DNA of 64,000 nt from NCBI RefSeq assembly GCF_056712565.1, contig NZ_CM160072.1. One strand, 5' to 3'. Each line of letters begins with the position of its first letter. Positions within the stretch are counted from its first letter, which is position 1. The notes below the pieces were generated by a model. That model saw only the letters and a list, made by a program, of their open reading frames with translations. It did no database searches and had not been told where the DNA came from. Below are positions 2,784 through 61,926 of the stretch, in pieces. Position numbers and translations under genes: made by a program.

Positions 2784-4405
<1,622 letters not shown>

Positions 4406-11595: not shown

Positions 11596-11728
11596 TTTTT
11601 GGGACTCCTGGCTGATTAAGTATGTCGATAAGGCGTTTCCATCCGTCACGTAATTTACGGGTGATTCGTTCAAGTAAAGATTCGGAAGGGCAGCCAGCAA
11701 CAGGCCACCCTGCAATGGCATATTGCAT
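11564..11728 (-). CDS. cIII: Anti-FtsH regulator CIII
   Basis: Hand translation gives [54 protein letters not shown] (54 aa); below the 60 aa ORF-track cutoff. Confidence 0.85.
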   Translation of the reverse strand: MQYAIAGWPVAGCPSESLLERITRKLRDGWKRLIDILNQPGVPKNGSNNYGYPD

Positions 11729-11800
11729 GGTGTGCTCCTTATTTATACATAACGAAAAACGCCTCGAGTGAAGCGTAATTGGTATGCGGTAACGCCGCGC

Positions 11801-21678: not shown

Positions 21679-22761
21679 TTAGAACTGATAAACCAGACCT
21701 ACAGCGACGATGTCGTCGGTATCAATACCAGCTGTTTTGGTAAACTTACTATCGTCAATTAAGTTGATTTTGTAATCAACAAAAGTGGACATGTTTTTAT
21801 TAAAGTAGTAAGTAGCACCGACATCGACATACTTGACTAAGTCTCGGTCACCATGAACACCAAGGTCTTTACCTTTTGACTGAAGGTAAGCAACAGATGG
21901 ACGCAGACCGAAGTCAAACTGATATTGTGCTACTGCTTCAAAGTTTTGTGCTTTGTTTGCAATATGGTTATTACCAAAAACGGTCATATTCTGAGTTTCA
22001 GAATATGTGGTAGCCAGATAGATATTGTTCGCATCATATTTCAGGCCTGCAGCCCATACTTCCGCATTTTTGCCGGAGGCATTGAATTTGCTCTTACCAT
22101 AGGCGACCTGACCGTCAGTGCGATCTGATTTAGCATAGGTTGCACCCACGCCGAATCCTTCATACTCATAAGTAGTGGAGAAACCGAAACCATCACCATT
22201 GGCTTCAGTTACGTCAGTGCGGTCATTTTTACCCTGATACTGAGCAGCAAAGTTCAGGCCATCGACCAGACCAAAGAAGTCGTTGTTACGATAAGTTGCA
22301 ACACCAGTAGTGCGACCAGTCATGAACACATCTGTTTGGGTCCAGGTATCACCACCGAATTCTGGCAGAACGTCAGTCCACGCACCGATGTCGTATGCTA
22401 CACCGTAGTTACGGCCGTAATCGATTGAGCCGTAATCACCAAATTTCAGGCCTGCAAATGCAAGACGGGTTTTGTCTTTGGAAGAACCTTGAGATTCAGC
22501 ACGGTTGCCTTTGAATTCATATTCCCACTGACCGAAACCAGTCAGTTGATCGTTGATTTGGGTTTCACCTTTGAAGCCAAGACGGGCATAAGTAGTATCA
22601 CCATCATCTGCATCATTAGAGGAGAAGTAGTGCTTGGCATTAACTTTCCCGTATAGATCCAGCTTGTTACTGTCTTTATTATAAATTTCAGCTGCCTGAG
22701 CAGACATCGCCATCAGTACTGATGCAGCTACAGCAGAAATTGCCACTGTTAATTTTTTCAT
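21679..22761 (-). CDS. nmpC: OmpC/NmpC-family outer membrane porin (prophage moron)
   Basis: Signal peptide [24 protein letters not shown]-terminal ...VGLVYQF beta-barrel terminus, porin-like body; inserted between Q and lysis genes on the opposite strand. Confidence 0.88.
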
Positions 22762-24551: not shown

Positions 24552-24845
24552 TTATTGTGAGCAATACACACGCGCTTCCAGCGGAGTATAAATGCCTAAA
24601 GTAATAAAACCGAGCAATCCATTTACGAATGTTTGCTGGGTTTCTGTTTTAACAACATTTTCTGCACCACCACAAATTTTTGCTGCATCGACAGTTTTCT
24701 TCTGCCCAATTCCCGAAACGAAGAAATGATGGGTGATGGTTTCCTTTGGTGTTACTGCTGTAGGTTTGTTTCCAACAGTAAACGTCTGTTGAGCACATCC
24801 TGTAATAAGCATTGCCAGAGCGGCAGAAAACAACATTTTTTTCAT
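24552..24845 (-). CDS. bor: Bor lipoprotein (serum resistance, lysogenic conversion)
   Basis: 97 aa from MKKMLFSAALAMLITGCAQQTFTVGNKPTAVTPKETITHHFFVSGIGQKKTVDAAKICGG... Confidence 0.9.
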   Translation of the reverse strand: MKKMLFSAALAMLITGCAQQTFTVGNKPTAVTPKETITHHFFVSGIGQKKTVDAAKICGGAENVVKTETQQTFVNGLLGFITLGIYTPLEARVYCSQ

Positions 24846-26267: not shown

Positions 26268-26415
26268 TTGATGATGCCTCTGTGTGAAATGACGGTAAAC
26301 GACGCACTTGTGCCGGCACATAATAGCAAGCACCATAATAGATCAGATTCGATTCTTGCTGTAAGTGATAATTATTCTCGTTTTCGGGTCCTTTCCGTCG
26401 ATCCAACAGGTTACG

Positions 26416-26427
26416 GGGCGGCGACCT
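26416..26427. other. cosN 12-nt cohesive end site GGGCGGCGACCT
   Basis: ACGGGGCGGCGACCTCGCGGTTTTTCACTATTTATGAAAATTTT matches the lambda cos left end; 188 bp upstream of nu1, as in lambda. Confidence 0.85.
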
Positions 26428-26603
26428 CGCGGTTTTTCACTATTTATGAAAATTTTTCAGGGAAAATCGTGTCGGTACTTCTCGAATATAACTTTTTGTT
26501 TTTTTTAATATTGCATCCGTAAAGGTCCGACATGAAAGTGTCCGAAAATGCCTTTTTCTGGCGTTTTCATGTCGGGCCTTGTATTTGATAATGGGTTGTT
26601 TTC

Positions 26604-32767: not shown

Positions 32768-33796
32768 ATGGGATTGTTTACGACCCGCCAGTTACTCGGT
32801 TATACCGAACAAAAAGTTAAATTTCGTGCGCTGTTTCTGGAGCTGTTTTTCCGCCGTACGGTGAATTTCCATACCGAAGAGGTGATGCTGGACAAAATTA
32901 CCGGAAAAACGCCGGTGGCGGCCTATGTCTCCCCGGTTGTTGAAGGAAAAGTGCTGCGTCATCGTGGTGGTGAAACCCGCGTGTTGCGTCCGGGCTACGT
33001 CAAGCCGAAACACGAATTTAATTACCAGCAGGCGGTTGAGCGCCTTCCTGGTGAAGATCCATCTCAACTGAATGATCCGGCTTACCGCCGTCTGCGTATC
33101 ATTACCGATAACCTCAAACAGGAAGAGCACGCGATTGTCCAGGTGGAAGAAATGCAGGCGGTAAATGCTGTGTTGTATGGCAAATACACCATGGAAGGAG
33201 ACCAGTTCGAGAAAATTGAGGTCGATTTTGGCAGGTCGACGAAGAATAACATCACTCAGGGTAGTGGTAAGGAGTGGTCAAAACAGGATCGTGACACGTT
33301 CGATCCTACACATGATATTGACCTCTACTGCGACCTGGCCAGCGGTCTTGTGAATATTGCCATTATGGACGGTACCGTCTGGCGTCTTCTGAATGGCTTT
33401 AAGCTGTTCCGCGAAAAACTGGATACCCGTCGCGGTTCAAATTCTCAACTCGAAACGGCAGTGAAAGATCTGGGCGCAGTGGTGTCCTTCAAGGGGTATT
33501 ACGGCGATCTGGCCATTGTGGTGGCGAAAACGTCTTATATAGCAGAAGACGGTACCGAAAAACGTTATCTTCCAGATGGCATGCTGGTTCTGGGGAATAC
33601 TGCTGCAGATGGGATCCGTTGTTACGGTGCCATTCAGGATGCTCAGGCGTTGTCCGAAGGTGTGGTGGCCTCTTCCCGTTATCCGAAACACTGGCTGACG
33701 GTAGGGGATCCCGCCCGTGAATTTACCATGACGCAGTCCGCGCCGCTGATGGTGTTGCCGGACCCGGATGAGTTTGTGGTGGTACAGGTGAAATAA
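32768..33796 (+). CDS. E: Major capsid protein E
   Basis: 342 aa; closely matches lambda gpE (PGYVKPKHE, QVEEMQAVNAVLYGKYTMEGD, TGDPAREFTMTQSAPLM). Confidence 0.95.
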   Translation: MGLFTTRQLLGYTEQKVKFRALFLELFFRRTVNFHTEEVMLDKITGKTPVAAYVSPVVEGKVLRHRGGETRVLRPGYVKPKHEFNYQQAVERLPGEDPSQLNDPAYRRLRIITDNLKQEEHAIVQVEEMQAVNAVLYGKYTMEGDQFEKIEVDFGRSTKNNITQGSGKEWSKQDRDTFDPTHDIDLYCDLASGLVNIAIMDGTVWRLLNGFKLFREKLDTRRGSNSQLETAVKDLGAVVSFKGYYGDLAIVVAKTSYIAEDGTEKRYLPDGMLVLGNTAADGIRCYGAIQDAQALSEGVVASSRYPKHWLTVGDPAREFTMTQSAPLMVLPDPDEFVVVQVK

Positions 33797-33847
33797 TCCG
33801 TGAGCGGGGGCGAAATGCCCCCGTGTCTTTTTTCACAGGGGGCTGAT

Positions 33848-34222
33848 ATGGCAACGAAAGAGCAAAATCTGAAACGGCTTGATGAACTGGCCCTGATTCT
33901 GGGGCGTGAGCCGGATATATCCGGGAGTGCCGCAGAGATAGCGCAGCGGGTGGCAGAATGGGAAGAGGAAATGCAGTCATCCGGCGATGATGTACAGGTT
34001 ATGAATATGGATATCCGGGAGCGGGAAACCGCGGCTCATGATGTTCGTGAGGAAACATCCGGCGCGTTAACGCGCATCAGAGTTCTGACCTGCCTCCATC
34101 TCTGTGGCGTTGATGGTGAAACGGGGGAATCCGTTGAGCTTGCGGATGTTGGTCGGGTGATTCTGATTATGTCCTCAGATGCAAAAACACACGTTGATGG
34201 TGGAATGGCTGTTTATGCGTGA
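33848..34222 (+). CDS. FI: DNA packaging protein FI
   Basis: 124 aa from MATKEQNLKRLDELALILGREPD...; lambda FI position. Confidence 0.75.
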   Translation: MATKEQNLKRLDELALILGREPDISGSAAEIAQRVAEWEEEMQSSGDDVQVMNMDIRERETAAHDVREETSGALTRIRVLTCLHLCGVDGETGESVELADVGRVILIMSSDAKTHVDGGMAVYA

Positions 34223-34568
34223 TTTTCAGAATGCCTTTGATGCCGCCCTTGCCGGGGTGGACAGTACGATTGTTGAAGTGATGGGCATCAGTGCGCAGTT
34301 CACCTCCGGTGCACAGCGTGGCGGCGAGGTTCATGGCGTTTTTGACGATCCGGAGTCGCTGGGTTTTGCCAGTAGTGGGATCCGTATTGAAGGAAGTAAC
34401 CCGTCATTATTTGTGCTTACGGATACGGTTTGTGCTGTACGGCGTGGTGACACGCTGACCATTAACGGCGAGATGTTCTGGGTGGACCGTGTTTCTCCGG
34501 ATGACGGAGGGAGTTGTTATCTCTGGCTCAACCGGGGGCAACCACCTGCCGCCAGCCGTCGCCGCTGA
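34215..34568 (+). CDS. FII: Head-tail connector FII
   Basis: 117 aa from MRDFQNAFDAALAG...; C-terminus WVDRVSPDDGGSCYLWL matches lambda FII. Confidence 0.88.
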   Translation: MRDFQNAFDAALAGVDSTIVEVMGISAQFTSGAQRGGEVHGVFDDPESLGFASSGIRIEGSNPSLFVLTDTVCAVRRGDTLTINGEMFWVDRVSPDDGGSCYLWLNRGQPPAASRRR

Positions 34569-34579
34569 AAGGGGGATGT

Positions 34580-35158
34580 ATGGCCATAAAAGGTCTTGAG
34601 CAGGCCGTTGAAAACCTCAGCCGTATCAGCAAAACGGCAGTGCCTGGTGCCGCCGCAATGGCCATTAACCGCGTTGCTTCATCCGCGATATCGCAGTCGG
34701 CGTCACTGGTTGCCCGTGAGACAAAGGTACGCCGGAAACTGGTAAAGGAAAGGGCCAGGCTGAAAAGGGCCACGGTCAAAAATCCGCAGGCCAGAATCAA
34801 AGTTAACCGGGGGGATTTGCCCGTAATCAGGCTGGGTAACGCGCGGGTTGTCCTGTCCCGACGCAGGCGTCGTAAAAAGGGGCAGCGTTCATCCCTGAAA
34901 GGTGGCGGCAGCGTGCTTGTGGTGGGAAACCGTCGTATTCCCGGCGCGTTTATTCAGCAACTGAAAAATGGCCGGTGGCATGTCATGCAGCGTGTGGCCG
35001 GGAAAAACCGTTACCCCATTGATGTGGTGAAAATCCCGATGGCGGTGCCGCTGACCACGGCGTTTAAACAGAATATTGAGCGGATACGGCGTGAGCGTCT
35101 TCCGAAAGAGCTGGGCTATGCGCTGCAGCATCAACTGAGAATGGTAATAAAGCGATGA
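34580..35158 (+). CDS. Z: Tail completion protein Z
   Basis: 192 aa from MAIKGLEQAVENLSRISKTAVPGAAAMAINRVASSAIS...; near-identical to lambda Z. Confidence 0.92.
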   Translation: MAIKGLEQAVENLSRISKTAVPGAAAMAINRVASSAISQSASLVARETKVRRKLVKERARLKRATVKNPQARIKVNRGDLPVIRLGNARVVLSRRRRRKKGQRSSLKGGGSVLVVGNRRIPGAFIQQLKNGRWHVMQRVAGKNRYPIDVVKIPMAVPLTTAFKQNIERIRRERLPKELGYALQHQLRMVIKR

Positions 35159-35550
35159 AACATACTGAACTCCGTGCAGCCGTACTGGATGCACTGGAGA
35201 AGCATGACACCGGGGCGACGCTTTTTGATGGTCGCCCTGCTGTTTTTGATGAGGAAGATTTTCCGGCAATTGCCGTTTATCTCACCGGCGCTGAATACAC
35301 GGGCGAAGAGCTGGACAGCGATACCTGGCAGGCGGAGCTGCATATTGAAGTTTTCCTGCCTGCTCAGGTGCCGGATTCAGAGCTGGATTCGTGGATGGAG
35401 TCCCGGATTTATCCGGTGATGAGCGATATCCCGGCACTGTCAGATTTGATCACCAGTATGGTGGCCAGTGGCTATGACTACCGGCGCGACGATGATGCGG
35501 GCCTGTGGAGTTCAGCCGATCTGACTTATGTCATTACCTATGAAATGTGA
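35155..35550 (+). CDS. U: Tail terminator U
   Basis: 131 aa [48 protein letters not shown]... Confidence 0.9.
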
Positions 35551-35557
35551 GGACGAT

Positions 35558-36298
35558 ATGCCAACACCAAATCCTCGGGCACCGGTGAAAGGGGCCGGGA
35601 CCACACTGTGGGTTTATAACGGGAGCGGCGACCCTTATGCAAACCCGCTTTCAGACAATGACTGGTCGCGTCTGGCAAAAATTAAAGACCTGACGCCCGG
35701 CGAACTGACCGCTGAGTCCTATGACGACAGTTATCTCGATGATGAAGATGCGGACTGGACCGCGACCGGGCAGGGGCAGAAATCCGCCGGAGATACCAGC
35801 TTCACGCTGGCGTGGATGCCCGGAGAGCAGGGGCAGCAGGCGCTGCTGGCGTGGTTTAATGAAGGTGATACCCGTGCCTATAAAATCCGCTTCCCGAACG
35901 GCACGGTCGATGTGTTCCGTGGCTGGGTCAGCAGTATCGGTAAGGCGGTGACGGCGAAGGAAGTGATCACCCGTACGGTGAAGGTCACCAATGTGGGCCG
36001 TCCGTCAATGGCAGAAGATCGCAGTACGGTGACGGCGGCAACCGGTATGACCGTGACGCCTGCCAGCTCCTCGGTGGTGAAAGGGCAGAGCACCACGCTG
36101 ACCGTGGCCTTCCAGCCGGAGGGCGCAACTGACAAGAGCTTCCGTGCGGTGTCAGCGGATAAAACAAAAGCCACCGTGTCGGTCAGTGGTATGACCATCA
36201 CCGTGAACGGCGTTGCTGCAGGCAAGGTCAACATTCCGGTTGTATCCGGTAATGGTGAACTTGCTGCGGTTGCAGAAATCACTGTCACCGACAGTTAA
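35558..36298 (+). CDS. V: Major tail tube protein V (with C-terminal Ig-like domain)
   Basis: 246 aa from [45 protein letters not shown]... Confidence 0.93.
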
Positions 36299-36313
36299 TC
36301 CGGAGAGTCAGCG

Positions 36314-36736
36314 ATGTTCCTGAAAACCGAATCATTTGAACATAACGGCGTGACCGTCACGCTTTCTGAACTGTCAGCCCTGCAGCGTATTGAGCATCTC
36401 GCCCTGATGAAACAGCAGGCAGAACAGGCGGAGTCAGACAGCAACCGGCAGGTTACTGTGGAAGACGCCATCAGAACCGGTGCTTTTGTGGTGGCGATGT
36501 CCCTGTGGCATAACCATCCGCAGAAGACAAAGCAGCCTTCCATGAATGAAGCCGTTAAACAGATTGAGCAGGAAGTGCTTACCACCTGGCCCGCGGAGGC
36601 AATTTCTCATGCTGAAAACGTGGTGTACCGGCTGTCCGGTATGTATGGGTTTGTGGTGAATGATGCCCCTGACCAGGCAGAGGACTCCGGGCCTGCAGAG
36701 CCTGTTTCTGCGGGAAAGTGTTCGACGGTGAGCTGA
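36314..36736 (+). CDS. G: Tail assembly chaperone G
   Basis: 140 aa MFLKTESFEHNGVTVTLSELSALQRIEHLALMK... ending ...VSAGKCSTVS. Confidence 0.92.
   Translation: MFLKTESFEHNGVTVTLSELSALQRIEHLALMKQQAEQAESDSNRQVTVEDAIRTGAFVVAMSLWHNHPQKTKQPSMNEAVKQIEQEVLTTWPAEAISHAENVVYRLSGMYGFVVNDAPDQAEDSGPAEPVSAGKCSTVS
36712..36718 (+). promoter_or_regulatory. Slippery heptamer G GGA AAG for -1 programmed frameshift producing G-T fusion
   Basis: GGGAAAG in the G zero frame (codons GCG GGA AAG), 6 codons before the G stop; T ORF opens in the -1 frame here. Confidence 0.85.
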
Positions 36737-37152
36737 GTTTTGCCCTGAAACTGGCGCGAGAGATGGGGCGACCTGACTGGCGCGCCATGCTTGCCGGGAT
36801 GTCATCCACGGAGTATGCCGACTGGCACCGCTTTTACAGTACCCATTATTTTCATGATGTTCTGCTGAATATGCACTTTTCCGGGCTGACGTACACTGTG
36901 CTCAGCCTGTTTTTCAGCGATCCGGATATGCATCCGCTGGATTTCAGTTTGCTGAACCGGCGTGAGGATGACGAAGAGCCTGAAGATGATGTGCTGATGC
37001 AGAAAGCGGCAGGGCTTACCGGAGGCGTCCGCTTTGACCCGGACGGAAATGAAGTTATCCCCGCTTCCCCGGATATGGCGGGCATGACGGAGGATGACGT
37101 AATGCTGATGACAGTATCAGAAGGGATCGCAGGAGGAGTCCGGTATGGCTGA
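36718..37152 (+). CDS. T: T-frame segment of tail assembly chaperone GT (expressed only by -1 frameshift from G)
   Basis: 144 aa ORF in -1 frame overlapping the G 3' end and running to the H start. Confidence 0.85.
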   Translation: MFDGELSFALKLAREMGRPDWRAMLAGMSSTEYADWHRFYSTHYFHDVLLNMHFSGLTYTVLSLFFSDPDMHPLDFSLLNRREDDEEPEDDVLMQKAAGLTGGVRFDPDGNEVIPASPDMAGMTEDDVMLMTVSEGIAGGVRYG

Positions 37153-39706
37153 ACCGGTAGGCGATCTGGTCGTTGATTTAAGTCTGGATGCGGCCAGATT
37201 TGACGAGCAGATGGCCAGAGTCAGGCGTCATTTTTCCGGTACGGAAAGTGATGCGAAAAAAACAGCGGCAGTCGTTGAACAGTCGCTGAGCCGACAGGCG
37301 CTGGCTGCACAGAAAGCGGGGATTTCCGTCGGGCAGTATAAAGCCGCCATGCGTATGCTGCCTGCACAGTTCACCGACGTGGCCACGCAGCTTGCAGGCG
37401 GGCAAAGCCCGTGGCTGATCCTGCTGCAACAGGGTGGTCAGGTTAAGGACTCCTTCGGCGGGATGATCCCCATGTTCCGGGGGCTTGCCGGTGCGATCAC
37501 CCTGCCGATGGTCGGGGCCACCTCGCTGGCGGTGGCGACCGGTGCGCTGGCGTATGCCTGGTATCAGGGTAACTCAACCCTGTCCGATTTCAACAAAACG
37601 CTGGTCCTTTCCGGCAATCAGTCGGGTCTGACGGCAGATCGTATGCTGGTCCTGTCCAGAGCCGGGCAGGCGGCAGGGCTGACGTTTAACCAGACCAGCG
37701 AGTCACTCAGCGCACTGGTTAAGGCGGGAGTAAGCGGTGAGGCTCAGATTGCATCCATCAGCCAGAGTGTGGCGCGTTTCTCCTCTGCATCCGGCGTGGA
37801 GGTGGACAAGGTCGCTGAAGCCTTCGGGAAGCTGACCACTGACCCGACGTCGGGGCTGACGGCGATGGCGCGCCAGTTCCATAACGTAACGGCGGAGCAG
37901 ATTGCGTATGTTGCTCAGTTGCAGCGTTCCGGCGATGAATCCGGGGCATTGCAGGCGGCGAACGAGGCCGCAACGAAAGGGTTTGATGACCAGACCCGAC
38001 GCCTGAAAGAGAACATGGGCACGCTGGAAACCTGGGCAGACAGGACAGCACGGGCATTCAAATCCATGTGGGATGCGGTGCTGGATATTGGTCGTCCTGA
38101 TACCGCTCAGGAGATGCTGATTAAGGCAGAGGCTGCGTTTAAGAAAGCGGACGACATCTGGAATCTGCGCAAGGATGATTATTTTGTTAACGATGAAGCG
38201 CGGGCGCGTTACTGGGATGATCGTGAAAAGGCCCGTCTTGCGCTTGAAGCCGCCCGAAAGAAGGCTGAACAGCAGAGTCAACAGGACAAAAATGCGCAGC
38301 AGCAGAGCGATACCGAAGCATCACGGCTGAAATATACCGAAGAGGCGCAGAAGGCTTACGAACGGCTGCAGACACCGCTGGAGAAATATACCGCCCGTCA
38401 GGAAGAACTGAACAAGGCACTGAAAGACGGGAAAATCCTGCAGGCAGATTACAACACGCTGATGGCGGCGGCGAAAAAGGATTATGAAGCGACGCTGAAA
38501 AAGCCGAAACAGTCCGGCGTGAAGGTGTCTGCGGGCGATCGTCAGGAAGACAGTGCTCATGCTGCCCTGCTGACGCTTCAGGCTGAACTCCGGACGCTGG
38601 AGAAGCATGCCGGAGCAAATGAGAAAATCAGCCAGCAGCGCCGGGATTTGTGGAAGGCGGAGAGTCAGTTCGCGGTACTGGAGGAGGCGGCGCAACGTCG
38701 CCAGCTGTCTGCACAGGAGAAATCCCTGCTGGCGCATAAAGATGAGACGCTGGAGTACAAACGCCAGCTGGCTGCACTTGGCGACAAGGTTACGTATCAG
38801 GAGCGCCTGAACGCGCTGGCGCAGCAGGCGGATAAATTCGCACAGCAGCAACGGGCAAAACGGGCCGCTATTGATGCGAAAAGCCGGGGGCTGACTGACC
38901 GGCAGGCAGAACGGGAAGCCACGGAACAGCGCCTGAAGGAACAGTATGGCGATAATCCTCTGGCGCTGAATAACGTCATGTCAGAGCAGAAAAAGACCTG
39001 GGCGGCTGAAGACCTGCTTCGCGGGAACTGGATGGCAGGCCTGAAGTCCGGCTGGAGTGAGTGGGAAGAGAGTGCCACGGACAGTATGTCGCAGGTTAAA
39101 AGTGCTGCCACGCAGACCTTTGATGGTATTGCGCAGAATATGGCGGCGATGCTGACCGGCAGTGAACAGAACTGGCGCAGCTTCACCCGTTCCGTGCTGT
39201 CCATGATGACAGAAATTCTGCTTAAGCAGGCAATGGTGGGGATTGTCGGGAGTATCGGCAGCGCTATTGGCGGGGCTGTTGGTGGCGGCGCATCCGCGTC
39301 AGGCGGTACAGCCATTCAGGCCGCTGCGGCGAAACTCCATTTTGCAACCGGAGGATTTACGGGAACCGGCGGCAAATATGAGCCAGCGGGGATTGTTCAC
39401 CGTGGTGAATTTGTCTTCACGAAGGAGGCAACCAGCCGGATTGGCGTGGGAAATCTCTACCGGCTGATGCGCGGCTATGCCACCGGCGGTTATGTCGGTG
39501 GCACCGGAAGTCCGGCGCAAATGCGGCGTTCAGAGGGTATCAGGTTTGAGCAGAACAACAACGTGGTGATTCAGAACGACGGTACGAATGGTCTGCCAGG
39601 TCCACAGATGATGAAGGCGGTGTATGACATGGCCCGCAAGGGTGCCCGTGATGAAATCCAGGCACAGATGCGCGATGGTGGTCTGTTCTCCGGAGGTGGA
39701 CGATGA
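37145..39706 (+). CDS. H: Tail tape measure protein H
   Basis: 853 aa (same length as lambda gpH); MAEPVGDLVVDLSLDAARFDEQMARVRRHF... Confidence 0.93.
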   Translation: MAEPVGDLVVDLSLDAARFDEQMARVRRHFSGTESDAKKTAAVVEQSLSRQALAAQKAGISVGQYKAAMRMLPAQFTDVATQLAGGQSPWLILLQQGGQVKDSFGGMIPMFRGLAGAITLPMVGATSLAVATGALAYAWYQGNSTLSDFNKTLVLSGNQSGLTADRMLVLSRAGQAAGLTFNQTSESLSALVKAGVSGEAQIASISQSVARFSSASGVEVDKVAEAFGKLTTDPTSGLTAMARQFHNVTAEQIAYVAQLQRSGDESGALQAANEAATKGFDDQTRRLKENMGTLETWADRTARAFKSMWDAVLDIGRPDTAQEMLIKAEAAFKKADDIWNLRKDDYFVNDEARARYWDDREKARLALEAARKKAEQQSQQDKNAQQQSDTEASRLKYTEEAQKAYERLQTPLEKYTARQEELNKALKDGKILQADYNTLMAAAKKDYEATLKKPKQSGVKVSAGDRQEDSAHAALLTLQAELRTLEKHAGANEKISQQRRDLWKAESQFAVLEEAAQRRQLSAQEKSLLAHKDETLEYKRQLAALGDKVTYQERLNALAQQADKFAQQQRAKRAAIDAKSRGLTDRQAEREATEQRLKEQYGDNPLALNNVMSEQKKTWAAEDLLRGNWMAGLKSGWSEWEESATDSMSQVKSAATQTFDGIAQNMAAMLTGSEQNWRSFTRSVLSMMTEILLKQAMVGIVGSIGSAIGGAVGGGASASGGTAIQAAAAKLHFATGGFTGTGGKYEPAGIVHRGEFVFTKEATSRIGVGNLYRLMRGYATGGYVGGTGSPAQMRRSEGIRFEQNNNVVIQNDGTNGLPGPQMMKAVYDMARKGARDEIQAQMRDGGLFSGGGR

Positions 39707-40032
39707 AAACCTTCCGCTGGAAAGTGAAACCCGGGATGGATGTGACATCGGCTCCTTCCGTCAGGGAGGTGCGCTTTGGTGATGGCTATTCCCAGCGTGC
39801 GCCTGCCGGGCTGAACGCTGACCTGAAAACGTACAGCGTGACGCTGTCTGTCTCCCGTGAGGAGGCCACGGCGCTGGAGTCGTTTCTGGCTGAGCACGGG
39901 GGCTGGAAGGCCTTTCTGTGGACGCCGCCTTATGGTTACAGGCAGATAAAGGTGACCTGCGCAAAATGGTCGTCGCGGGTCAGTATGCTGCGTGTTGAGT
40001 TCAGCGCAGAGTTTGAACAGGTGGTGAACTGA
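39703..40032 (+). CDS. M: Tail tip protein M
   Basis: 109 aa; MKTFRWKVKPGMDVTSAPSVREVRFGDGYSQRAPAGLNADLKTYSVTLSV... Confidence 0.9.
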   Translation: MKTFRWKVKPGMDVTSAPSVREVRFGDGYSQRAPAGLNADLKTYSVTLSVSREEATALESFLAEHGGWKAFLWTPPYGYRQIKVTCAKWSSRVSMLRVEFSAEFEQVVN

Positions 40033-40730
40033 TGCAGGATATCCGGCAGGAAACATTGAATGAATGCACCCGTGCGGAGCAGTCGGCCAGCGTGGTGCTC
40101 TGGGAAATCGATCTGACAGAGGTCGGTGGAGAACGTTATTTTTTCTGTAATGAGCAGAACGAAAAAGGTGAGCCGGTCACCTGGCAGGGGCGACAGTATC
40201 AGCCGTATCCCATTCAGGGGAGTAGTTTTGAACTGAATGGCAAAGGCACCAGTACGCGCCCCACGCTGACGGTTTCTAACCTGTACGGTATGGTCACCGG
40301 GATGGTGGAAGATCTGCAGAGTCTGGTCGGCGGAACGGTGGTCAGGCGTAAGGTTTACGCCCGTTTTCTGGATGCGGTGAACTTCGTCAACGGAAACAGC
40401 GACGCCGATCCGGAGCAGGAGGTGATCAGCCGCTGGCGCATCGAGCAGTGCAGCGAACTGAGTGCGGTCAGTGCCTCCTTTGTACTGTCCACACCGACGG
40501 AAACGGATGGTGCCGTTTTTCCGGGGCGCATCATGCTGGCTAATACCTGCACCTGGACCTATCGCGGTGATGAGTGCGGTTATCACGGTCCGGCGGTCGC
40601 GGATGAATATGATCAGCCGACTTCCGATATCACGAAGGATAAATGCAGCAAATGCCTGAGCGGCTGTAAGTTTCGCAATAACGTCGGCAACTTTGGCGGC
40701 TTCCTTTCCATTAACAAACTTTCGCAGTAA
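40032..40730 (+). CDS. L: Tail tip protein L
   Basis: 232 aa; MQDIRQETLNECTRAEQSASVVLWEIDLTEVGGERYFFCNEQNEKGEPVTWQG... Confidence 0.9.
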   Translation: MQDIRQETLNECTRAEQSASVVLWEIDLTEVGGERYFFCNEQNEKGEPVTWQGRQYQPYPIQGSSFELNGKGTSTRPTLTVSNLYGMVTGMVEDLQSLVGGTVVRRKVYARFLDAVNFVNGNSDADPEQEVISRWRIEQCSELSAVSASFVLSTPTETDGAVFPGRIMLANTCTWTYRGDECGYHGPAVADEYDQPTSDITKDKCSKCLSGCKFRNNVGNFGGFLSINKLSQ

Positions 40731-40735
40731 ATCCC

Positions 40736-41479
40736 ATGACAGAGACAGAATCAGCGATTCTGGCGCATGCCCGGCGATGTGCGCCAGCGGAGTCGTGCGG
40801 CTTCGTGGTGAGAGCGCCGGAGGGGGAAAGATATTTTCCCTGCGTGAATATCTCCGGTGAGCCGGAGGCGTATTTCCGGATGGCTCCGGAGGACTGGCTG
40901 CAGGCAGAGATGCAGGGTGAGATTGTGGCGCTGGTCCACAGTCATCCCGGTGGTCTGCCCTGGCTGAGTGAGGCCGACCGGCGGCTGCAGGTGCAGAGTG
41001 ATTTGCCGTGGTGGCTGGTCTGCCGGGGGGCGATTCATAAGTTCCGCTGTGTGCCGCATCTCACCGGGCGGCGCTTTGAGCACGGGGTGACGGACTGTTA
41101 CACGCTGTTCCGGGACGCTTACCATCTGGCGGGGATTGAGATGCCGGACTTTCATCGTGAGGATGACTGGTGGCGTAACGGCCAGAATCTCTATCTTGAT
41201 AATCTGGAGGCCACAGGGCTGTATCAGGTGCCGTTGTCAGCGGCGCAGCCGGGCGATGTGCTGCTGTGCTGCTTTGGTTCATCGGTGCCGAATCATGCCG
41301 CTATTTACTGTGGTGACGGCGAGCTGCTGCACCATATTCCTGAACAACTGAGTAAACGAGAGAGGTATACCGACAAATGGCAGCGACGCACACACTCCCT
41401 CTGGCGTCACCGGGCATGGCGCGCATCTGCCTTTACGGGGATTTACAACGATTTGGCCGCCGCATCGACCTTCGTGTGA
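40736..41479 (+). CDS. K: Tail tip assembly protein K (JAB/MPN plus NlpC/P60-like); start uncertain
   Basis: 247 aa ORF with HSHPGG motif and C...H peptidase-like region; an internal start MAPEDW at 40880 would give 199 aa. Confidence 0.85.
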   Translation: MTETESAILAHARRCAPAESCGFVVRAPEGERYFPCVNISGEPEAYFRMAPEDWLQAEMQGEIVALVHSHPGGLPWLSEADRRLQVQSDLPWWLVCRGAIHKFRCVPHLTGRRFEHGVTDCYTLFRDAYHLAGIEMPDFHREDDWWRNGQNLYLDNLEATGLYQVPLSAAQPGDVLLCCFGSSVPNHAAIYCGDGELLHHIPEQLSKRERYTDKWQRRTHSLWRHRAWRASAFTGIYNDLAAASTFV

Positions 41480-42108: not shown

Positions 42109-45100
42109 ATGGGTAAAGGCAGCAGTAAGGGGCATACCCCGCGCGAAGCGAAGGACAACCTGAAATCATCCCAGATGCTGAGCGTGATAGACGCCATCAG
42201 CGAAGGGCCGGTTGAAGGTCCGGTGGATGGATTAAAAAGCGTGCTGCTGAACAGTACGCCGGTGCTGGACAGTGAGGGGAATACCAATATATTCGGCGTC
42301 ACGGTGGTGTTCCGGGCCGGTGAGCAGGAGCAGACTCCGCCGGAGGGATTTGAATCCTCCGGCTCCGAGACGGTGCTCGGTACGGAAGTGAAATATGACA
42401 CGCCGATCACCCGGACCATCACGTCGGCAAACATTGACCGTCTGCGTTTTACTTTCGGCGTGCAGGCACTGGTGGAAACCACCTCAAAGGGGGACAGGAA
42501 TCCATCGGAAGTCCGCCTGCTGGTTCAGATTCAACGTAACGGTGGCTGGGTGACGGAAAAAGACATCACCATTAAGGGCAAAACCACCTCGCAGTATCTG
42601 GCCTCGGTGGTGGTGGATAACCTGCCGCCGCGCCCGTTTAATATCCGGATGCGCAGGATGACGCCGGACAGCACCACAGACCAGTTGCAGAACAAAACGC
42701 TCTGGTCGTCATACACCGAAATCATCGATGTGAAACAGTGCTACCCGAACACGGCACTGGTCGGCGTACAGGTGGACTCGGAGCAGTTCGGCAGCCAGCA
42801 GGTGAGCCGTAATTATCATCTTCGCGGGCGCATTCTGCAGGTGCCGTCGAACTATAACCCGCAGACGCGGCAATACAGCGGTATCTGGGACGGAACGTTT
42901 AAGCCAGCATACAGCAACAACATGGCCTGGTGTCTGTGGGATATGCTGACCCATCCGCGCTACGGCATGGGGAAACGTCTTGGTGCGGCAGATGTGGATA
43001 AATGGGCGCTGTATGTCATCGGCCAGAATTGCGACCAGTCAGTGCCGGACGGCTTTGGCGGCACGGAGCCGCGCATCACCTGTAATGCGTACCTGACCAC
43101 ACAGCGCAAGGCGTGGGATGTGCTCAGTGATTTCTGCTCGGCGATGCGCTGTATGCCGGTATGGAACGGGCAGACGCTGACGTTCGTGCAGGACCGACCG
43201 TCGGATAAGGTGTGGACCTATAACCGCAGTAATGTGGTGATGCCGGATGATGGTGCGCCGTTCCGCTACAGCTTCAGCGCCCTGAAAGACCGCCATAATG
43301 CTGTTGAGGTGAACTGGATTGACCCGGATAACGGCTGGGAGACGGCGACAGAGCTTGTGGAGGACACGCAGGCCATTGCCCGTTACGGTCGTAACGTCAC
43401 GAAGATGGATGCCTTTGGCTGTACCAGCCGGGGGCAGGCACACCGCGCCGGGCTGTGGCTGATTAAAACGGAACTGCTGGAGACGCAGACCGTGGATTTC
43501 AGCGTCGGCGCAGAAGGGCTTCGCCATGTACCGGGTGATGTTATTGAAATCTGCGATGATGACTATGCGGGGATCAGCATTGGCGGGCGCGTGCTGGCGG
43601 TGAACAGCCAGACCCGGACGCTGACGCTCGACCGTGAAATCACGCTGCCATCCTCCGGTACCACGCTGATAAGCCTGGTTGACGGTCAGGGTAATCCGGT
43701 CAGCGTGGAGGTCCAGTCCGTCACCGACGGCGTGAAGGTGAAAGTGAGCCGTGTTCCTGACGGCGTTGCAGAATACAGCGTGTGGGGGCTGAAGCTGCCG
43801 ACGCTGCGCCAGCGCCTGTTCCGCTGCGTGAGTATCCGTGAGAACGATGACGGCACGTATGCCATCACCGCCGTGCAGCATGTACCGGAGAAAGAAGCCA
43901 TCGTGGATAACGGGGCGCACTTTGACGGTGACCAGAGCGGCACGGTGAATGGTGTCACGCCGCCAGCAGTGCAGCACCTGACCGCCGAAGTCACTGCAGA
44001 CAGCGGGGAATATCAGGTGCTGGCGCGATGGGACACACCGAAGGTGGTGAAGGGCGTGAGCTTCCTGCTCCGTCTGACCGTAACAGCGGACGACGGCAGT
44101 GAGCGACTGGTCAGCACGGCCCGGACGACGGAAACCACATACCGCTTCACGCAACTGGCGCTGGGGAACTACAGGCTGACAGTCCGGGCGGTAAATGCCC
44201 GGGGGCAGCAGGGCGATCCGGCGTCGGTATCGTTCCGGATTGCCGCACCGGCAGCACCGTCGAGGATTGAGCTGACGCCGGGCTATTTTCAGATAACCGC
44301 CACGCCGCATCTTGCGGTTTATGATCCGACGGTACAGTTTGAGTTCTGGTTCTCGGAAAAGCGGATTACCGATATCAGGCAGGTTGAAACCACAGCCCGC
44401 TATCTTGGTACGGCGCTGTACTGGATAGCCGCCAGTATCAATATCAAACCGGGCCATGATTATTATTTTTACGTTCGCAGTGTGAACACCGTTGGCAAAT
44501 CGGCATTCGTGGAGGCTGTCGGTCGGGCGAGCGATGATGCGGAAGGTTACCTGGATTTTTTCAAAGGAGAAATCGGGAAAACACATCTGGCCCAGGAGTT
44601 GTGGACGCAGATTGATAACGGTCAGCTTGCGCCGGACCTGGCTGAAATCAGGACGTCCATTACGAATGTCAGCAATGAAATCACGCAGACCGTCAATAAA
44701 AAACTGGAAGACCAGAGTGCGGCAATCCAGCAGATACAGAAAGTTCAGGTTGATACAAATAATAACCTGAACAGCATGTGGGCCGTGAAACTGCAGCAGA
44801 TGAAGGACGGACGCCTTTATATTGCGGGTATTGGTGCCGGTGTTGAGAATACTCCTGACGGTATGCAGAGTCAGGTGCTGCTGGCGGCGGACAGGATTGC
44901 GATGATTAATCCTGCGAATGGCAACACAAAGCCGATGTTTGTTGGGCAGGGCGATCAGATATTCATGAACGAAGTGTTCCTGAAATATCTGACGGCTCCC
45001 ACCATTACCAGCGGTGGCAATCCCCCAACGTTTTCACTGACACCTGATGGTCGACTTTCTGCGAAAAATGCGGATATCAGCGGTAACGTGAACGCGAACT

Positions 45101-45591
45101 CCGGGACGCTCAACAACGTCACGATTAATCAGAACTGTCGGATTCTGGGAAAACTGTCAGCTAACCAGATTGAAGGTGATATTGTCAAAACGGTGGGAAA
45201 AGCCTTTCCGAGAAATGGCAGTTATGCCAGCGGTACAATAACGGTCACTGTGTACGATGACCAGGCTTTTGACCGTCAGATAGTAGTCCCCCCCGTTCTG
45301 TTTCGTGGGGGTAAGCATGAAAACTTCAACAGCAACAACCAACAGTCATACTGGTATTCAACCTGTAAGCTGCAGGTACTGAAGAACGGACAGGAAATCT
45401 TTCAGCAACCCGCGACGGATGTCAGCAGGGTATTTTCATCAGTCATTGATATGCCTGCCGGACACGGCCATGTCACCCTGACTTTCAATGTTTCTTCATA
45501 TGGTGCTAATAACTGGACGCCAACGACCAGTATCAGCGACCTTCTTGTTGTTGTGATGAAGAAATCTACAGCCGGTATCAGTATCAGTTGA
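42109..45591 (+). CDS. J: Central tail fibre / host specificity protein J
   Basis: 1160 aa; lambda J-like throughout, with fibronectin-III-like repeats and a C-terminal receptor-binding region that looks diverged from lambda. Confidence 0.93.
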
Positions 45592-48382: not shown

Positions 48383-49240
48383 CTAATTGGGTGATAACAG
48401 ATCCTGTGTATGGGAGTTTCCCTTTTTGCGTGCGTTGATGCTGGTAACGGCAAACGTCATGATGAACAAAACCGCGAATAAGACGACAATCGTCGGAGCT
48501 GGTGCGCTGTCGATAAAAAAGGACAACCAGACACCAGTCATTGACACTATTACCGATATGCCAGTCGCCAGTAGGAGCGCAATATGAAAGCGTTGTGTCA
48601 GGAGTACCGCAATGGCGCCAGGCGCAATGAGCAGAGAAATGGAGAGAATGATACCTACCGCTTTCAGCGTCGCCACAATGGTCAGAGAGACCATGCACAG
48701 CAGCCCATAATGCAGCCATCTCGTATGCAAACCGCTTACCTGCGCCTGTTGATAATCAAAGCTGAACAGCAAAAAATCCCGCCATTTTACGCTAATAACA
48801 AGTGTAACCAGCCCGGCAATAATCATCGTCTGGATTATATCGCCGATGGTTATCCCGAGCATGTCGCCGAAAAGAATATGGTCAAGATGTACGTCTGGTT
48901 TGACTGCAATATACAAGATCAGACCTGCGGCAAACATGCCAGAAAAAACAATCCCCATCACTGTATCTTGCTTGATTCGGCTGTTGTCTTTCAGGTATCC
49001 CGTCGCCACCGCGCAGAATACTCCGGCGACGAATGCCCCTGTAGCCAAAGGTAACCCCAGAATCCAGGCAAGCACGATTCCAGGAAAAACCGCATGACTC
49101 ATCGCGTCACCCATCAGTGCCCAACCTTTCAGGACCAGAAAGACCGACAGCAGCGCACAGGGTATGGAAACTACCAGTGAAATCAGCAGTGCGTGACTCA
49201 TAAAGGTGAACTGCAGTGGCTCCAGTAATAATGCCATCAT
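48383..49240 (-). CDS. sitD: Mn/Fe ABC transporter permease SitD
   Basis: 285 aa polytopic membrane protein of the ABC-3 permease family, last gene of a four-gene operon. Confidence 0.85.
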   Translation of the reverse strand: MMALLLEPLQFTFMSHALLISLVVSIPCALLSVFLVLKGWALMGDAMSHAVFPGIVLAWILGLPLATGAFVAGVFCAVATGYLKDNSRIKQDTVMGIVFSGMFAAGLILYIAVKPDVHLDHILFGDMLGITIGDIIQTMIIAGLVTLVISVKWRDFLLFSFDYQQAQVSGLHTRWLHYGLLCMVSLTIVATLKAVGIILSISLLIAPGAIAVLLTQRFHIALLLATGISVIVSMTGVWLSFFIDSAPAPTIVVLFAVLFIMTFAVTSINARKKGNSHTQDLLSPN

Positions 49241-50094
49241 GAGCGATCCTCCAGCGCCTTATGCGCACGCCGACGATTTGCCAAAAGCCCATGGGTGGGC
49301 GCAAAGACAAATGCTAAAAGAAACAGCAGTGTCTGCGCCACCACGATGATTCCACCTGTCGCGCCGTCCAGAAAGTAACTGACCCACGCGCCGAGGAAAC
49401 TAGTTACACTGCCAATAGTTACAGCAATCATGAGCAGGCGGGGAAAACGATCGGTTAACAACCATGCTGTTGCACCGGGAGTCACCACCAGACAGATCAC
49501 CAGAAAGGCACCAACCGTTTGCAGCGCCGCAACGGTCGAAACCGACAGCAGGGTGAAGAAGATGAGTTTTAATCTGCCCGGATGCAATCCAATAGCACGG
49601 GCGTGATTCTCGTCGAAAAAGGTCACCATAAGATCTTTCCATTTGAAAAAAAGCACGATGATCGAGAGAATGCCAATGATAGTGAGTTGCAGGATATCCG
49701 CCGGATCGATTGCCAGAATATTGCCCAGGACGATGGTCTGAATGTTCACAGATGTCGGGTTCAATGACACCATAAACAGCCCCAGGCCAAAAAAGGACGA
49801 GAAGATCAGACCGATGATGGCATCTTCTTTTAAGCGGGTGCGTTGGTTAAGAAACAGCATGCTGCCCGCAGCCAGTCCGCCGGAAAAGAAGGCTCCCAGA
49901 GAAAACGGAAGCCCCAGCATATATGCCCCCGCAACACCCGGGACAATAGAGTGCGACAACGCATCGCCAATCAGCGACCAGCCTTTTAGCATCAGATAGC
50001 ATGACAGGAAAGCGCAGAGACCGCCGACCATCGCCGAGACCCACATCGCATTGAGCATATATTCATAGCTGAAGGGTTCCAGTAGCACGTTCAT
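49237..50094 (-). CDS. sitC: Mn/Fe ABC transporter permease SitC
   Basis: 285 aa ABC-3 family permease, paralogous to SitD. Confidence 0.85.
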
Positions 50095-50918
50095 CTTTCT
50101 TCCCTCTGCACCGCTGACGGTCGATGAGCCACAAAAGGGCGTTCATCGTCAGTAATAATGCTTTCTTCCGAGCCGTTAAGTGTGACATGGCGCAGTACGC
50201 CGCTAAAAGCCAGCTCCAGGTTCTCGGCTGTAAAAGTGGTGTCTGTCGGCCCGCTTGCCAGGACGGTGCCTTTGACCATGACCGTATAATCGCAAAATGT
50301 CGTGACGGATCCGAGATTGTGTGTTGAGACAAGCATCGTTTTGCCTTCCGCGCGTAACTCCCTCAACAGGCTGATGATTTTGGCTTCGGTTTTCACATCA
50401 ACGCCGGTAAAAGGTTCATCCAGCAGGATCACATCACCCTGCTGTGCAATCGCTCTCGCCAGAAAGACGCGTTTCTTTTGTCCACCGGAAAGCTCGCCGA
50501 TTTGTCGATGGCGAAAATTCACCATATCGACACGTTCCAGCGCATCGGTGACAATCTGACGATCCCTCTTTTTGGCGATACGCAACATACCCATATGCCC
50601 ATAGCGGCCCATCATCACCACATCTTCCACCAGTACAGGAAATGACCAGTCAACATCTTCTGACTGAGGGACGTAGGCAACCAGGTTTTTCTGTAACGCC
50701 TGTCGCGTGGGAATACCCAGAACAGATATCTTTCCGCTGGTCAGACGCACAAATCCCATAATCGCTTTAAACAACGTCGATTTTCCGGAACCGTTTACCC
50801 CAACCAGAGCGGCAATAGATCCGCCTGGTACTGTGAAGGATGCATCGCGCAGTGCTGTGTGCCCGTTACGCCAGGTGACAGTAACATCATTAACGACAAT
50901 GCCTGCAGATTGCATCAT
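50091..50918 (-). CDS. sitB: Mn/Fe ABC transporter ATP-binding protein SitB
   Basis: 275 aa; Walker [13 protein letters not shown] signature LSGGQKKR, Walker B ILLDEP. Confidence 0.9.
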
Positions 50919-51832
50919 TATTTCTCCCTTTTCCCAGCTTTAATTCCCTGTACCAGCGTACTGGTAGTAACCTTAAGAAGGTCGATATACGTCGGTACCG
51001 GGCCGTTTTCTGTGCTCAGGGAATCGACATAGAGCACACCGCCGTAGTGTGCGCCGGTTTCACGCGCAACCTGACGCGCTGGTTTATCGGAAATCGTACT
51101 CTCGCTAAAGACTGCCGGGATATGATTTTTCTTAACTATATCAACAACCTTACGTACCTGCTGCGGTGTTCCTTGTTGATCGGCATTAATCGGCCACAGA
51201 TAAAGCTCTTTTAGCCCCAAATCGCGTGCGAGATAAGAAAAAGCCCCTTCACTGGTGACCATCCATCGCTGATTCTCAGGGAGTTCCGTAATCTGCTTAC
51301 GCAGGGGGGCAAGGGTTTGGGTAATCTTGGCTTTATAAGTATCGGCATTGCGTTGGTAGGTTTGTGCATTTGCCGGATCGTATTTTATCAACGCATCACG
51401 AATATTATCGACGTAAATCAGAGCATTATCTGGCGACATCCATGCATGGGGGTTAGGTTTGCCCTCATAGGGTCCTTCGGTGATCCCTACAGGCGTCACA
51501 CCCGAAGAGACAATTACTTCTGGAACCCCATTGAGATGCTGGTAAAAGCGTTGGAACCACAATTCCAGATTCATACCATTGGCGAGAATCAGTTGTGCCC
51601 CCTGCGCACGTTTAATATCGCCAGGGGTAGGCTGATACTCATGAATTTCTGCACCAGGCTTGGTTATGGATGAGACTTCTGCAGCATCTCCCGCCACGTT
51701 TTTGGCCATATCCGCGATGATGGTAAATGTTGTAATGACCTTGAATTTTTCAGTTGCACTTGCCTGAAATGCGATCGAGCAGGTGAGTGCGAGGCCCCCC
51801 AAGAGCATGGTTACTTTTTTTATCGAGTGCAT
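50918..51832 (-). CDS. sitA: Periplasmic Mn/Fe-binding protein SitA
   Basis: 304 aa with signal peptide; cluster 9 (TroA/ZnuA-like) solute-binding protein. Confidence 0.88.
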
Positions 51833-53289: not shown

Positions 53290-53749
53290 CAAGTAATACG
53301 GCGAGCGATATGACGTGCCATGGGATATCCGCACCCAGCAGCATGTTGTCTCCACGATGTCCGCAGTTCGCTCATAATAGACATTCACTACAGTTATAGT
53401 AGAAGGTATGCATGCTGCTGAGTGGGGAAAGTGTGAAAGAAAAGAAGACAGCTGCTTTGTTTGTCGTCACGTTTATCTTCATTGGCTATGCAAGTCGTAA
53501 TACAAGGCGGGACAAAACTGAGACACATAAGGCCTCGCAATGGCTTGCAAGGCCACACATGTATTGAGATGTTAATAAAATGTAGACTTGTAATTTTGAT
53601 ATAAATGGTAGAGAAAATCTTTCCCCAAAATAAAAACGAACGTCAATGAAATCAAACGGTTGAATAAAGTTGATTTTGGCTAATACAAAGACAAGAAAAT
53701 AATATTTATGATTAAATATCAGCGAGTTGAATACATAATTTTTATATAC

Positions 53750-53913
53750 TGCTGCGCCATATGGGCTGGACTGAAGCCGCAGACCTGATTGTTAAAGGTA
53801 TGGAAGGTGCAATCAACGCGAAGACCGTAACCTATGACTTCGAACGTCTGATGGAAGGCGCTAAACTGCTGAAATGTTCAGAGTTTGGTGACGCGATCAT
53901 CAAGAACATGTAA
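53750..53913 (+). pseudogene. icdC: Displaced icd 3' fragment (icdC-like) = right copy of att duplication
   Basis: Encodes ...[53 protein letters not shown] with no upstream icd body; repeat of 6327..6490. Confidence 0.88.
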
Positions 53914-53966
53914 TCTCTACATGTGTTAAATATTGAAACGGGCGTATAACACGCCCGTTGTTTTTA
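53750..53966. repeat. Right copy of icd 3'-end direct repeat (attR side)
   Basis: See 6327..6541; includes a copy of the icd terminator hairpin. Confidence 0.85.
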
Positions 53967-60406: not shown

Positions 60407-61926
60407 ATGAAACTGAAAAAACTCCCCGGATTTAGTTTAGGACTTATTGCTCTGGCGGTGGGTAATGCATATGTAACGCAATTGTTGGATATTTATAGTA
60501 TAATTTCCTATATAACCGATGAAGAATCACCGATTGAAATCAAAAATAATACTTCTACAAGTAATGGGGAGTATCTAATCACTTAAGACGAAAGCCATGC
60601 TGTGAAAGTGGATGACGGTGTAACTGGATATATACATAATGCCAGTGTGATGACTAGTGGTGATGGATCTTATGGTATTTCTGTTGATAGCCAAAACAAA
60701 GTATTATATATAAGCGATAGCAATATTAAGACGCTCTGAAAGCGTATCTGACAAAGAAAATGGAGGGATAACAGCCAGCGCAGTAGTCAGTGAATTTGGT
60801 GGCACCATCGTTATGAATGGTGATAATTCAGTCGAGACGAGGGGGCATATTCAGCGGGACTTTTAAGTCAGATTAATGATTCTGGGACTGTGGAAAATAA
60901 CACCCGTCTTGAAACCACAGATAAAACGAACATTGTTACCTATGGGGAAAAATGCAGTAGGAGTTCTTGCATGTTCAAGTCCTGGAGAGTCTCGAACATG
61001 TGTCGATGCTGTAGATGATGAAGTTTGTGATTCTAACAGTTACGAAGTTATTAGCCGTGCTGATTTAAAAATGAATGGTGGTTCCATAACAACTAATGGT
61101 ATTAATAGCTATGGTGCTTATGCTAATGGGAAAAAAGCATATATTAATTTAGATTATGTGGTACTTGAAACTGTGGCTGATGGAAGTTATGCAGTTGCTA
61201 TTCGACAAGGTAACATTGATATAAAAAAGTTCTATTACAACAAATGGCACTAAAGCCCCCATTGCAAAAATATACAATGGTAGAGAGTTATTTTTTTCCA
61301 ATGTCACTTCAGAATCAACAGAAACGCCTACCCCCGTCCTGCGACCCGAAGCTGGCAGTTACGTCGCCAACCTGGCAGCCGCTAACACTCTTTTTGTTAT
61401 GCGTCTGAACGATCGTGCAGATGAAACGCGCTATATCGATCCTGTAACTGAACAGGAGCGTTCAAGCCGATTTTGGCTACGTCAAATTGGCGGGCATAAT
61501 GCCTGGCGTGACAGCAACGGACAGTTGAGAACGACCTCGGCACAGGCCATCTGGATGGGCGTCGATCATAATGTGCACACGGAAGCCAATGGCTCACGTA
61601 TTGAGAATGACGCAAATAACAATATCCAGACCCGACTTGGTTTCCACACCTTTATTCGTACTCAGGAGAAAAACAGCGGTCCGCACGGTGACGACTTTGA
61701 ACCTTTTGTTGAAATGAACGGGATCCATAACAGTAAAGATTTTGCTGTCTCAATAAACGGTGTGAAAGTTGAACAAGCCGGGGCGCGTAATCTGGGGGAA
61801 ATTAAACATGGCGTAAATGGCAATCTGAATCCTGCGGCCAGCGTCTGGGGTAATGTGGGCGTGCAGCTGGGTGATAATGGCTACAATGACAACGCAATGA
61901 TGGTGGGCCTGAAATATAAGTTCTGA
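60407..61926 (+). pseudogene. ycgH: Disrupted autotransporter gene (ycgH-like), multiple frameshifts and stops
   Basis: Signal-peptide-like start MKLKKLPGFSLGLIALAVGNA then several in-frame stops; later fragments 60876..61253 and 61399..61926 end in an autotransporter beta-barrel terminus (...MMVGLKYKF). Confidence 0.65.

Follow-up and report, generated by a model that had tools for sequence, protein, structure and literature searches.

The -1 programmed ribosomal frameshift that joins the tail genes G and T of phage lambda was reportedly described by Levin, Hendrix and Casjens in 1993 and by Xu, Hendrix and Duda in 2004, 2013 and 2014. Ribosomes in lambda stay in the zero frame about 96% of the time, and G and GT are made in a ratio of about 30:1; both are needed for tail assembly (Maynard 2012, PMC3296357; Atkins 2016, PMC5009743). 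The G protein attaches to the tape measure protein, as does the G part of GT; the partner of the T part is V, and neither G nor GT is present in the finished lambda tail (PMC5009743). Both lysine codons at the slip site are read by a single tRNA-Lys (mnm5s2UUU), and loss of the thiolation at U34 gives more slippage and less phage (PMC3296357; PMC7618472).

The locus considered here lies in a stretch of DNA of 64,000 nucleotides (the window). It is almost certainly a lambda-type G/GT programmed -1 ribosomal frameshift site, in a lambda/phage-21-like prophage at icd on an APEC O1-like E. coli chromosome; nothing in the sequence speaks against that reading. The feature is, of course, already known (lambda G/GT; Levin et al. 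1993, Xu et al. 2004). The sequence anatomy, the family membership, the lack of a start signal for T and the universal conservation of the site come from the present analysis. The slip frequency of about 3-4%, the tRNA mechanism and the roles of the chaperones are taken from published lambda work.

On the lambda model, most ribosomes would pass G GGA AAG without shifting and terminate six codons on, giving a gpG of 140 amino acids. A few percent would slip back by one base with tRNA-Gly on GGA and tRNA-Lys (mnm5s2UUU) on AAG. These tRNAs would re-pair with GGG and AAA, and the T frame would then be read to 37152, giving a GT of 279 amino acids. By analogy with lambda, the G part would bind the tape measure protein H, the T part would recruit the tail tube protein V, and tail assembly would need a fixed, low ratio of G to GT. 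Expression would need the late operon, which is to say, induction of the prophage.

Anatomy of the overlap and the translation of T

The features are collected in Table 1. The gene order is V (tail tube), G, T and H (tape measure), followed by M. As in lambda, two overlapping ORFs stand between the genes for the major tail protein and the tape measure; the upstream ORF is a gpG homolog, and the downstream ORF, in the -1 frame, is a T homolog. A heptamer of the form X_XXY_YYZ lies in the phase of the zero frame, inside the overlap and near the G stop, and the downstream ORF is, by computational test, without a translation start of its own. In an NCBIfam search with the conceptual 279-residue GT fusion, G matched the equivalog family TIGR01674 at 207.8 bits (cut-off 74.45) and T matched the equivalog TIGR01715 at 179.9 bits (cut-off 77.35); T also matched PF06223 (3.4e-13). 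A PDB sequence search with GT found no relative of solved structure.

Table 1. Positions of the G-T junction and its neighbors, counted from the first base of the window
Feature	Position	Strand	Remarks
Gene V, major tail tube protein	35558..36298	+	PF16461 1.4e-70, and Big_2; coordinates by colinearity with lambda V
Gene G, tail assembly chaperone, 140 aa	36314..36736	+	PF06894 1.3e-57; TIGR01674; SD -6.6 kcal/mol
Two-frame overlap (G in the zero frame, T in the -1 frame)	36673..36736	+	64 nt; the shift must fall here
Slippery heptamer G GGA AAG	36712..36718	+	P-site Gly GGA to GGG; A-site Lys AAG to AAA
T segment, -1 frame	36718..37152	+	144 codons and stop; C-terminal half of GT; PF06223, TIGR01715; without usable SD
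Predicted GT fusion	join(36314..36718, 36718..37152), span 36314..37152	+	279 aa; conceptual join
Predicted GT junction peptide			...SGPAEPVSAGKVFDGELSFALK; ...PVSAGK-VFDGELSFALK
Candidate downstream RNA structure	36726..36796	+	outer helix 36726-36733 / 36789-36796 enclosing a GC-rich hairpin
Gene H, tape measure protein	37145..39706	+	PF06791 1.2e-69, PF09718 2.1e-21; SD -10.3 kcal/mol

A preliminary description of this DNA had placed the heptamer in the zero frame of G, six codons before the stop, and the phasing of the ORFs bears this out. Within the interval 36705-36725, the bases GGGAAAG are read in the G frame as ...TCT GCG GGA AAG TGT TCG ACG GTG AGC TGA, which phases the heptamer as G/GGA/AAG, with its AAG six codons 5' of the stop TGA at 36734-36736. 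The -1 reading around 36700-36730 is ...GCC TGT TTC TGC GGG AAA GTG TTC GAC.... Re-pairing of the P-site codon, from GGA to GGG, is perfect here, and the A-site codon goes from AAG to AAA.

The same description had a 144-codon ORF opening in the -1 frame and running to the start of H. The count is correct when made from the GTG at 36718, whose G is the last base of the heptamer; the frame itself really opens 15 codons upstream, and is without stops from 36673 to the TGA at 37150-37152 (159 codons). It does run to H, ending 8 nt inside that gene, whose ATG is at 37145 (the overlap reads ATGGCTGA). This earlier opening is the sole refinement; every element of the original observation is confirmed. 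In the last part of the frame, at 37030-37149, the window has the C-terminal extension of lambda-type T proteins, about 38 residues that repeat GGVR[FY] (GLTGGVRFDPDG ... GIAGGVRYG). The T proteins of phi80, N15, cdtI and Gifsy stop just past the first copy of GGVR[FY].

T might instead be an independent gene, translated from the GTG at 36718 or the ATG at 36763, with the heptamer incidental. Both codons do exist, and several public records annotate T in this way. J02459 and RefSeq/PGAP (NC_008563.1) start a separate CDS at the GTG within the heptamer; in OR974322 and PhiR12_2 it starts at the ATG 45 nt later. The N15 record marks the slippery sequence, and the phage 21 record (OL657228) is the sole one among J02459, NC_008563.1, OR974322, PV340550 and OL657228 to carry a joined GT CDS. 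A free-standing T in these records, including RefSeq/PGAP for identical DNA, is an annotation convention, not evidence.

The start and ribosome-binding site that an independent T should have were looked for. The anti-SD energy is -2.2 kcal/mol at the GTG and -1.5 at the ATG, with all T-frame starts between -1.5 and -2.5. The corresponding energies for V, G, H, M and L run from -5.9 to -10.8 kcal/mol, and the mean over all positions from 33000 to 41000 is -3.3, so that both candidate starts are weaker than the local background. Nor are the start codons themselves conserved. Of 249 homologous loci, 113 have GTC as the codon after the heptamer, 91 have GCC and only 36 have GTG (GCA, GCG and GTA also occur), and the Met codon at 36763 is replaced by Phe in half of the T family. 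The invariant T-frame residues K2, E7, F10, L14, A15, R16 and E17 all precede that Met, and the TIGR01715 profile begins four residues past the slip.

In the published lambda work, moreover, T is found only as the G-T fusion, as Levin et al. 1993 is cited in PMC3296357 and PMC5009743. An independent T is thus very improbable, and the evidence assembled here supports the view that T has no start signal of its own. The preliminary description had gone further, holding that the T frame cannot be expressed alone. For the window, this claim stands as a reading of the sequence; the experimental proof belongs to lambda.

Conservation of the slippery heptamer

Neither the motif nor the pattern by itself is diagnostic. 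On the two strands of the window GGGAAAG occurs 12 times where 8.6 are expected, and 12 or more are seen in 14 of 100 shuffles; no significant over-representation was found there. A scan of all ORFs in the window of at least 100 amino acids found 76 in-frame XXXYYYZ heptamers. Several come with a long -1 ORF, and these ORFs are ordinary overlapping neighbors in operons (nudJ/mnmA, sitB/sitC) or spurious antisense ORFs. The expectation for an in-phase GGGAAAG within the 64-nt overlap, estimated from the frequency of the motif in the window, is about 0.002. What places the site beyond chance is its position together with its conservation, at 249 of 249 homologous loci.

Elsewhere in the window, an ORF at 60876-61253 (+) has an in-frame A AAA AAG at 61223-61229, eight codons before its stop, with a 51-codon -1 extension beyond. 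The corresponding region of APEC O1 has a hypothetical protein beside frameshifted autotransporter fragments, and is probably pseudogene debris.

Two sets of relatives carry the comparison. One consists of 16 phages whose G proteins are 28-100% identical to the G of the window. The other consists of 250 collected loci, 249 of them usable; 232 came from IMG/VR and were picked by similarity of the T protein only, so that they are not conditioned on the heptamer. The usable loci have GGAAAAG (158), GGGAAAG (85) or AAAAAAG (4), which accounts for 247 loci, each with the heptamer at the first residue of the T homology. The remaining two (L073 and L166) retain the heptamer as well, and the G stop comes two or six codons later. 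The site had been described beforehand as conserved, and an equivalent heptamer at every usable locus agrees with this.

L073 and L166 had been candidates for in-frame G-T fusions missing one G of the heptamer; this was rejected when the heptamer proved intact on inspection. Both have an extra G about 55 nt into T, where GGGG becomes GGGGG (at about 1300-1340 in L073 and about 790-830 in L166), and this breaks the T frame. The extra base is either a homopolymer sequencing error or the mark of a dead T.

Among the 16 phages the overlap shrinks to 25-43 nt, and the heptamer (G GGA AAG, G GAA AAG or A AAA AAG) is always inside it, in zero-frame phase and with the G stop two or six codons on. In PhiR12_2 and the Stx2a phages, a -1-frame TGA TGA TGA ends 9 nt upstream of the heptamer. 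This, in turn, means that the shift is pinned to the heptamer itself.

The two readings of the overlap have fared differently. The -1 reading is conserved across the phage relatives (GKVFDGEL, GKALASEL, GKVLTREL), whereas the zero-frame reading is variable (CSTVS*, PSPVS*, HSKAS*, S*, P*). Keeping one reading and not the other is what marks the -1 frame, in these sequences, as the one under selection in the overlap. The peptide motif GK[VA][FL]..EL.F..LARE, conserved in the T frame, begins at the slip site itself. Its Lys codon, AAA, shows no synonymous change among 93 distinct sequences of the lambda and phi80 clades, and the zero-frame Lys codon of the site is AAG at all loci.

Heptamer and stop distance track clade. 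Lambda-type loci combine a stop at six codons with G GGA AAG or A AAA AAG, and phi80/N15-type loci have G GAA AAG with the stop at six codons (two in Kp4865-4). In the cdtI/Fels/Gifsy type, G GAA AAG is followed by a stop at two codons.

A fusion could also be made by slippage of RNA polymerase, that is, by transcriptional frameshifting. Such slippage yields two protein forms in other systems (PMC4256274). The AAAAAAG variants of the site do have a run of six A, but in the window neither the G run nor the A run of the site exceeds three bases. Known transcriptional slippage tracts are far longer than three-base runs. The shift rate in lambda, moreover, responds to thiolation of U34 in tRNA-Lys, which is a translational effect (PMC3296357). 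The chance that the polymerase is responsible here is close to nil, and the slip is better assigned to the ribosome.

Flanking elements and the slip rate

In an E. coli reporter, G_GGA_AAG gave 0.28% frameshifting alone; adding the IS911 stimulator brought this to 3.8%, and the IS3 stimulator to 43% (Sharma 2014 Table S3, PMC4066793). The difference between 0.28% for the bare heptamer and about 3-4% in lambda means that the natural context must contribute, and suggests a gain of about ten-fold.

An upstream source for this was sought in an SD-like stimulator 6-17 nt before the heptamer; GCAGAGCCUGUUUCUGC has no GGAGG, AGGA or GGGG-like element. Also considered and rejected was a hairpin of 9 bp at 36692-36714 (+), in which the GGG of the heptamer forms part of the 3' arm. 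The segment as a whole has a z of +0.1 against shuffles, and PhiR12_2-type relatives do not conserve the 5' arm.

Downstream, there is a candidate. A stimulator of the dnaX or IS3/IS911 kind would be a stable, conserved fold 5-9 nt past the heptamer, backed by covariation. An outer helix of 8 bp begins 7 nt after the heptamer and encloses a GC-rich GGCGCG...CGCGCC hairpin, about 70 nt in all. The region 36719-36800 folds at -32.6 kcal/mol, with a z of -2.6 against dinucleotide shuffles. In a gapless alignment of 13 sequences, 87% of the pair cells of the outer helix and inner hairpin are paired, against 24-43% in slid controls; the covariation score exceeds all of 500 shuffles, with five pairs changing on both sides. 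For this test the inner hairpin was drawn in the register common to the relatives, and the window's own fold gives similar figures. Over 94 distinct junctions, the lambda and phi80/N15 clades keep 92-93% of cells paired; the pair 36727/36795 shows one clean compensatory switch, from G-C to A-U, and several further changes are compatible with wobble. Representatives of the clades give z values of -2.1 to -5.2 for the downstream fold. A conserved hairpin has also been flagged for a related cluster of tail chaperones with A_AAA_AAG (Sharma 2014, PMC4066793).

Other results point the other way. In the Gifsy/cdtI clade, where 59% of cells pair and z runs from about -0.5 to -1.3, the fold has not been preserved, and RNAalifold over all 94 distinct junctions finds only -2.3 kcal/mol. 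Synonymous variation within the lambda clade shows no dip over T codons 9-29 relative to the codons farther on (0.16, against 0.15 and 0.12). Compared with recodings that preserve the T protein, the fold has a z of only -1.0 in the window, and of -1.6 to -2.2 in lambda, N15 and phi80. On these modest values, conservation of the LAREMGRPDWRAML peptide by itself accounts for much of the fold and its stability. Levin and colleagues, for their part, are said to have found that the downstream sequence matters only modestly, and to have seen no pausing element.

Taken over the sequences compared, the evidence for selection on the downstream RNA fold is weak and mixed. With the RNAalifold, synonymous variation and recoding results, the fold as a selected element was demoted to a low-probability add-on. 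It is a tentative and rather doubtful suggestion that the structure of about 70 nt acts as a moderate stimulator, raising slippage from about 0.3% to about 3-4% in the lambda and phi80/N15 clades, with the Gifsy/cdtI clade tuning the ratio otherwise.

The prophage and its place among known recoding systems

Over its whole length the window matches E. coli APEC O1 at 99.6-100% identity. It holds a lambdoid prophage at icd, whose integrase gene lies at 6604-7746 and whose late genes extend to about 47.7 kb. A full icd stands on the left (5240-6490) and a partial icd copy on the right (about 53747-53914). Between the tail-fibre genes and the right icd fragment lies the iron/manganese transporter sitABCD (48383-51832, -), which looks like cargo. 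An iss (bor-like) gene (about 24552-24845, -) and an ompC-like porin gene (21679-22761, -) are also inside the prophage. Just upstream of the small terminase gene, at 26366-26457, the window has about 91 extra bases relative to APEC O1. The prophage cIII gene has at its 5' end, at 11683-11741 (-), a match of 88.5 bits to the Rfam family Lambda_thermo, the cIII thermoregulator. The tail-tip gene J (42109-45591, +) is an intact ORF of 1160 amino acids here and a frameshifted pseudogene in the APEC O1 annotation.

The host genes mnmA (2784-3890, -) and hflD (2107-2748, -) lie just left of the attachment site. The product of mnmA is the tRNA 2-thiouridine(34) synthase for tRNA-Lys(UUU), and its loss raises lambda G-T frameshifting (PMC3296357). 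Its nearness to the prophage appears to be a coincidence of the map (purB-hflD-mnmA-nudJ-rluE-icd), with no functional link.

The site might also be an intact-looking relic, without present function, in a prophage that no longer makes tails. The argument for this comes from APEC O1, where J is annotated as frameshifted and a tail-fibre gene as partial. Against it, V, G, T, H, M, L, K, I and the long J ORF are all open in the window, as are the genes for integrase, a cI-like repressor, terminase, portal and capsid. The G-T segment matches in 3707 of 5426 complete E. coli genomes, and is 100% identical across many E. coli genomes. We regard a relic as unlikely; in any case, that reading concerns the state of the prophage and not the identity of the site as a lambda-type G/GT frameshift.

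The biological weight of the finding is small: this recoding site is among the best known, and the window has a well-preserved copy of it. Its practical value lies in annotation: the correct product is the 279-residue join given in Table 1, not a free-standing T of 144 amino acids. Further, the 249-locus set, with its three heptamer types and two stop distances, frames a testable question, namely what sets the ratio of G to GT.

The preliminary description had called this the classical lambda G/GT arrangement, and the gene order, the families, the heptamer and the identity to lambda and phage 21 all uphold it. The G-T segment of 839 bp is 95.8% identical to lambda and 99.9% to phage ev017. It differs from phage 21 (OL657228) by one nucleotide, and is 100% identical to APEC O1. 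The GT protein shares 261 of 279 residues with lambda GT (93.5%) and 278 of 279 with phage 21 GT; the G protein is 100% identical to that of phage 21.

With lambda, the locus shares the heptamer G GGA AAG, the six codons to the G stop, a G of 140 and a GT of 279 amino acids, the order V-G-T-H and the 8-nt overlap of T and H. It differs in 35 nucleotides of the 839 bp. None of these falls in the heptamer, in the 18 nt upstream or in the 40 nt downstream; the nearest are at 36662-36694 on one side, and at 36759 and then 36774 on the other. It differs also in that the site of the window is in a resident prophage at icd. From the GT of phage 21 and ev017 there is essentially no difference at the G-T locus, and the rest of the window's prophage is a mosaic with cargo genes.

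N15 (gp14/15), phi80, mEp043, cdtI, Fels-1 and Gifsy-1 have the same gene order, and the shift falls at the start of the T homology. Their heptamer, however, is G GAA AAG, where re-pairing in the P site is imperfect, and in the cdtI/Fels/Gifsy group the G stop comes only two codons after the AAG. Their T is shorter as well (115-117 codons), without the lambda-type C-terminal repeat.

Another comparison is with the -1 frameshift signals of E. coli dnaX (A AAA AAG) and of the insertion sequences IS911/IS3. These have proven strong stimulators, an upstream SD with a downstream hairpin or pseudoknot, and shift tens of percent of ribosomes; G-T, in contrast, shifts a few percent, with no upstream SD-like element and only a candidate structure downstream. 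What all of them share is a heptamer of the X_XXA_AAG type, which exploits the single tRNA-Lys of E. coli (PMC5009743; PMC4066793).
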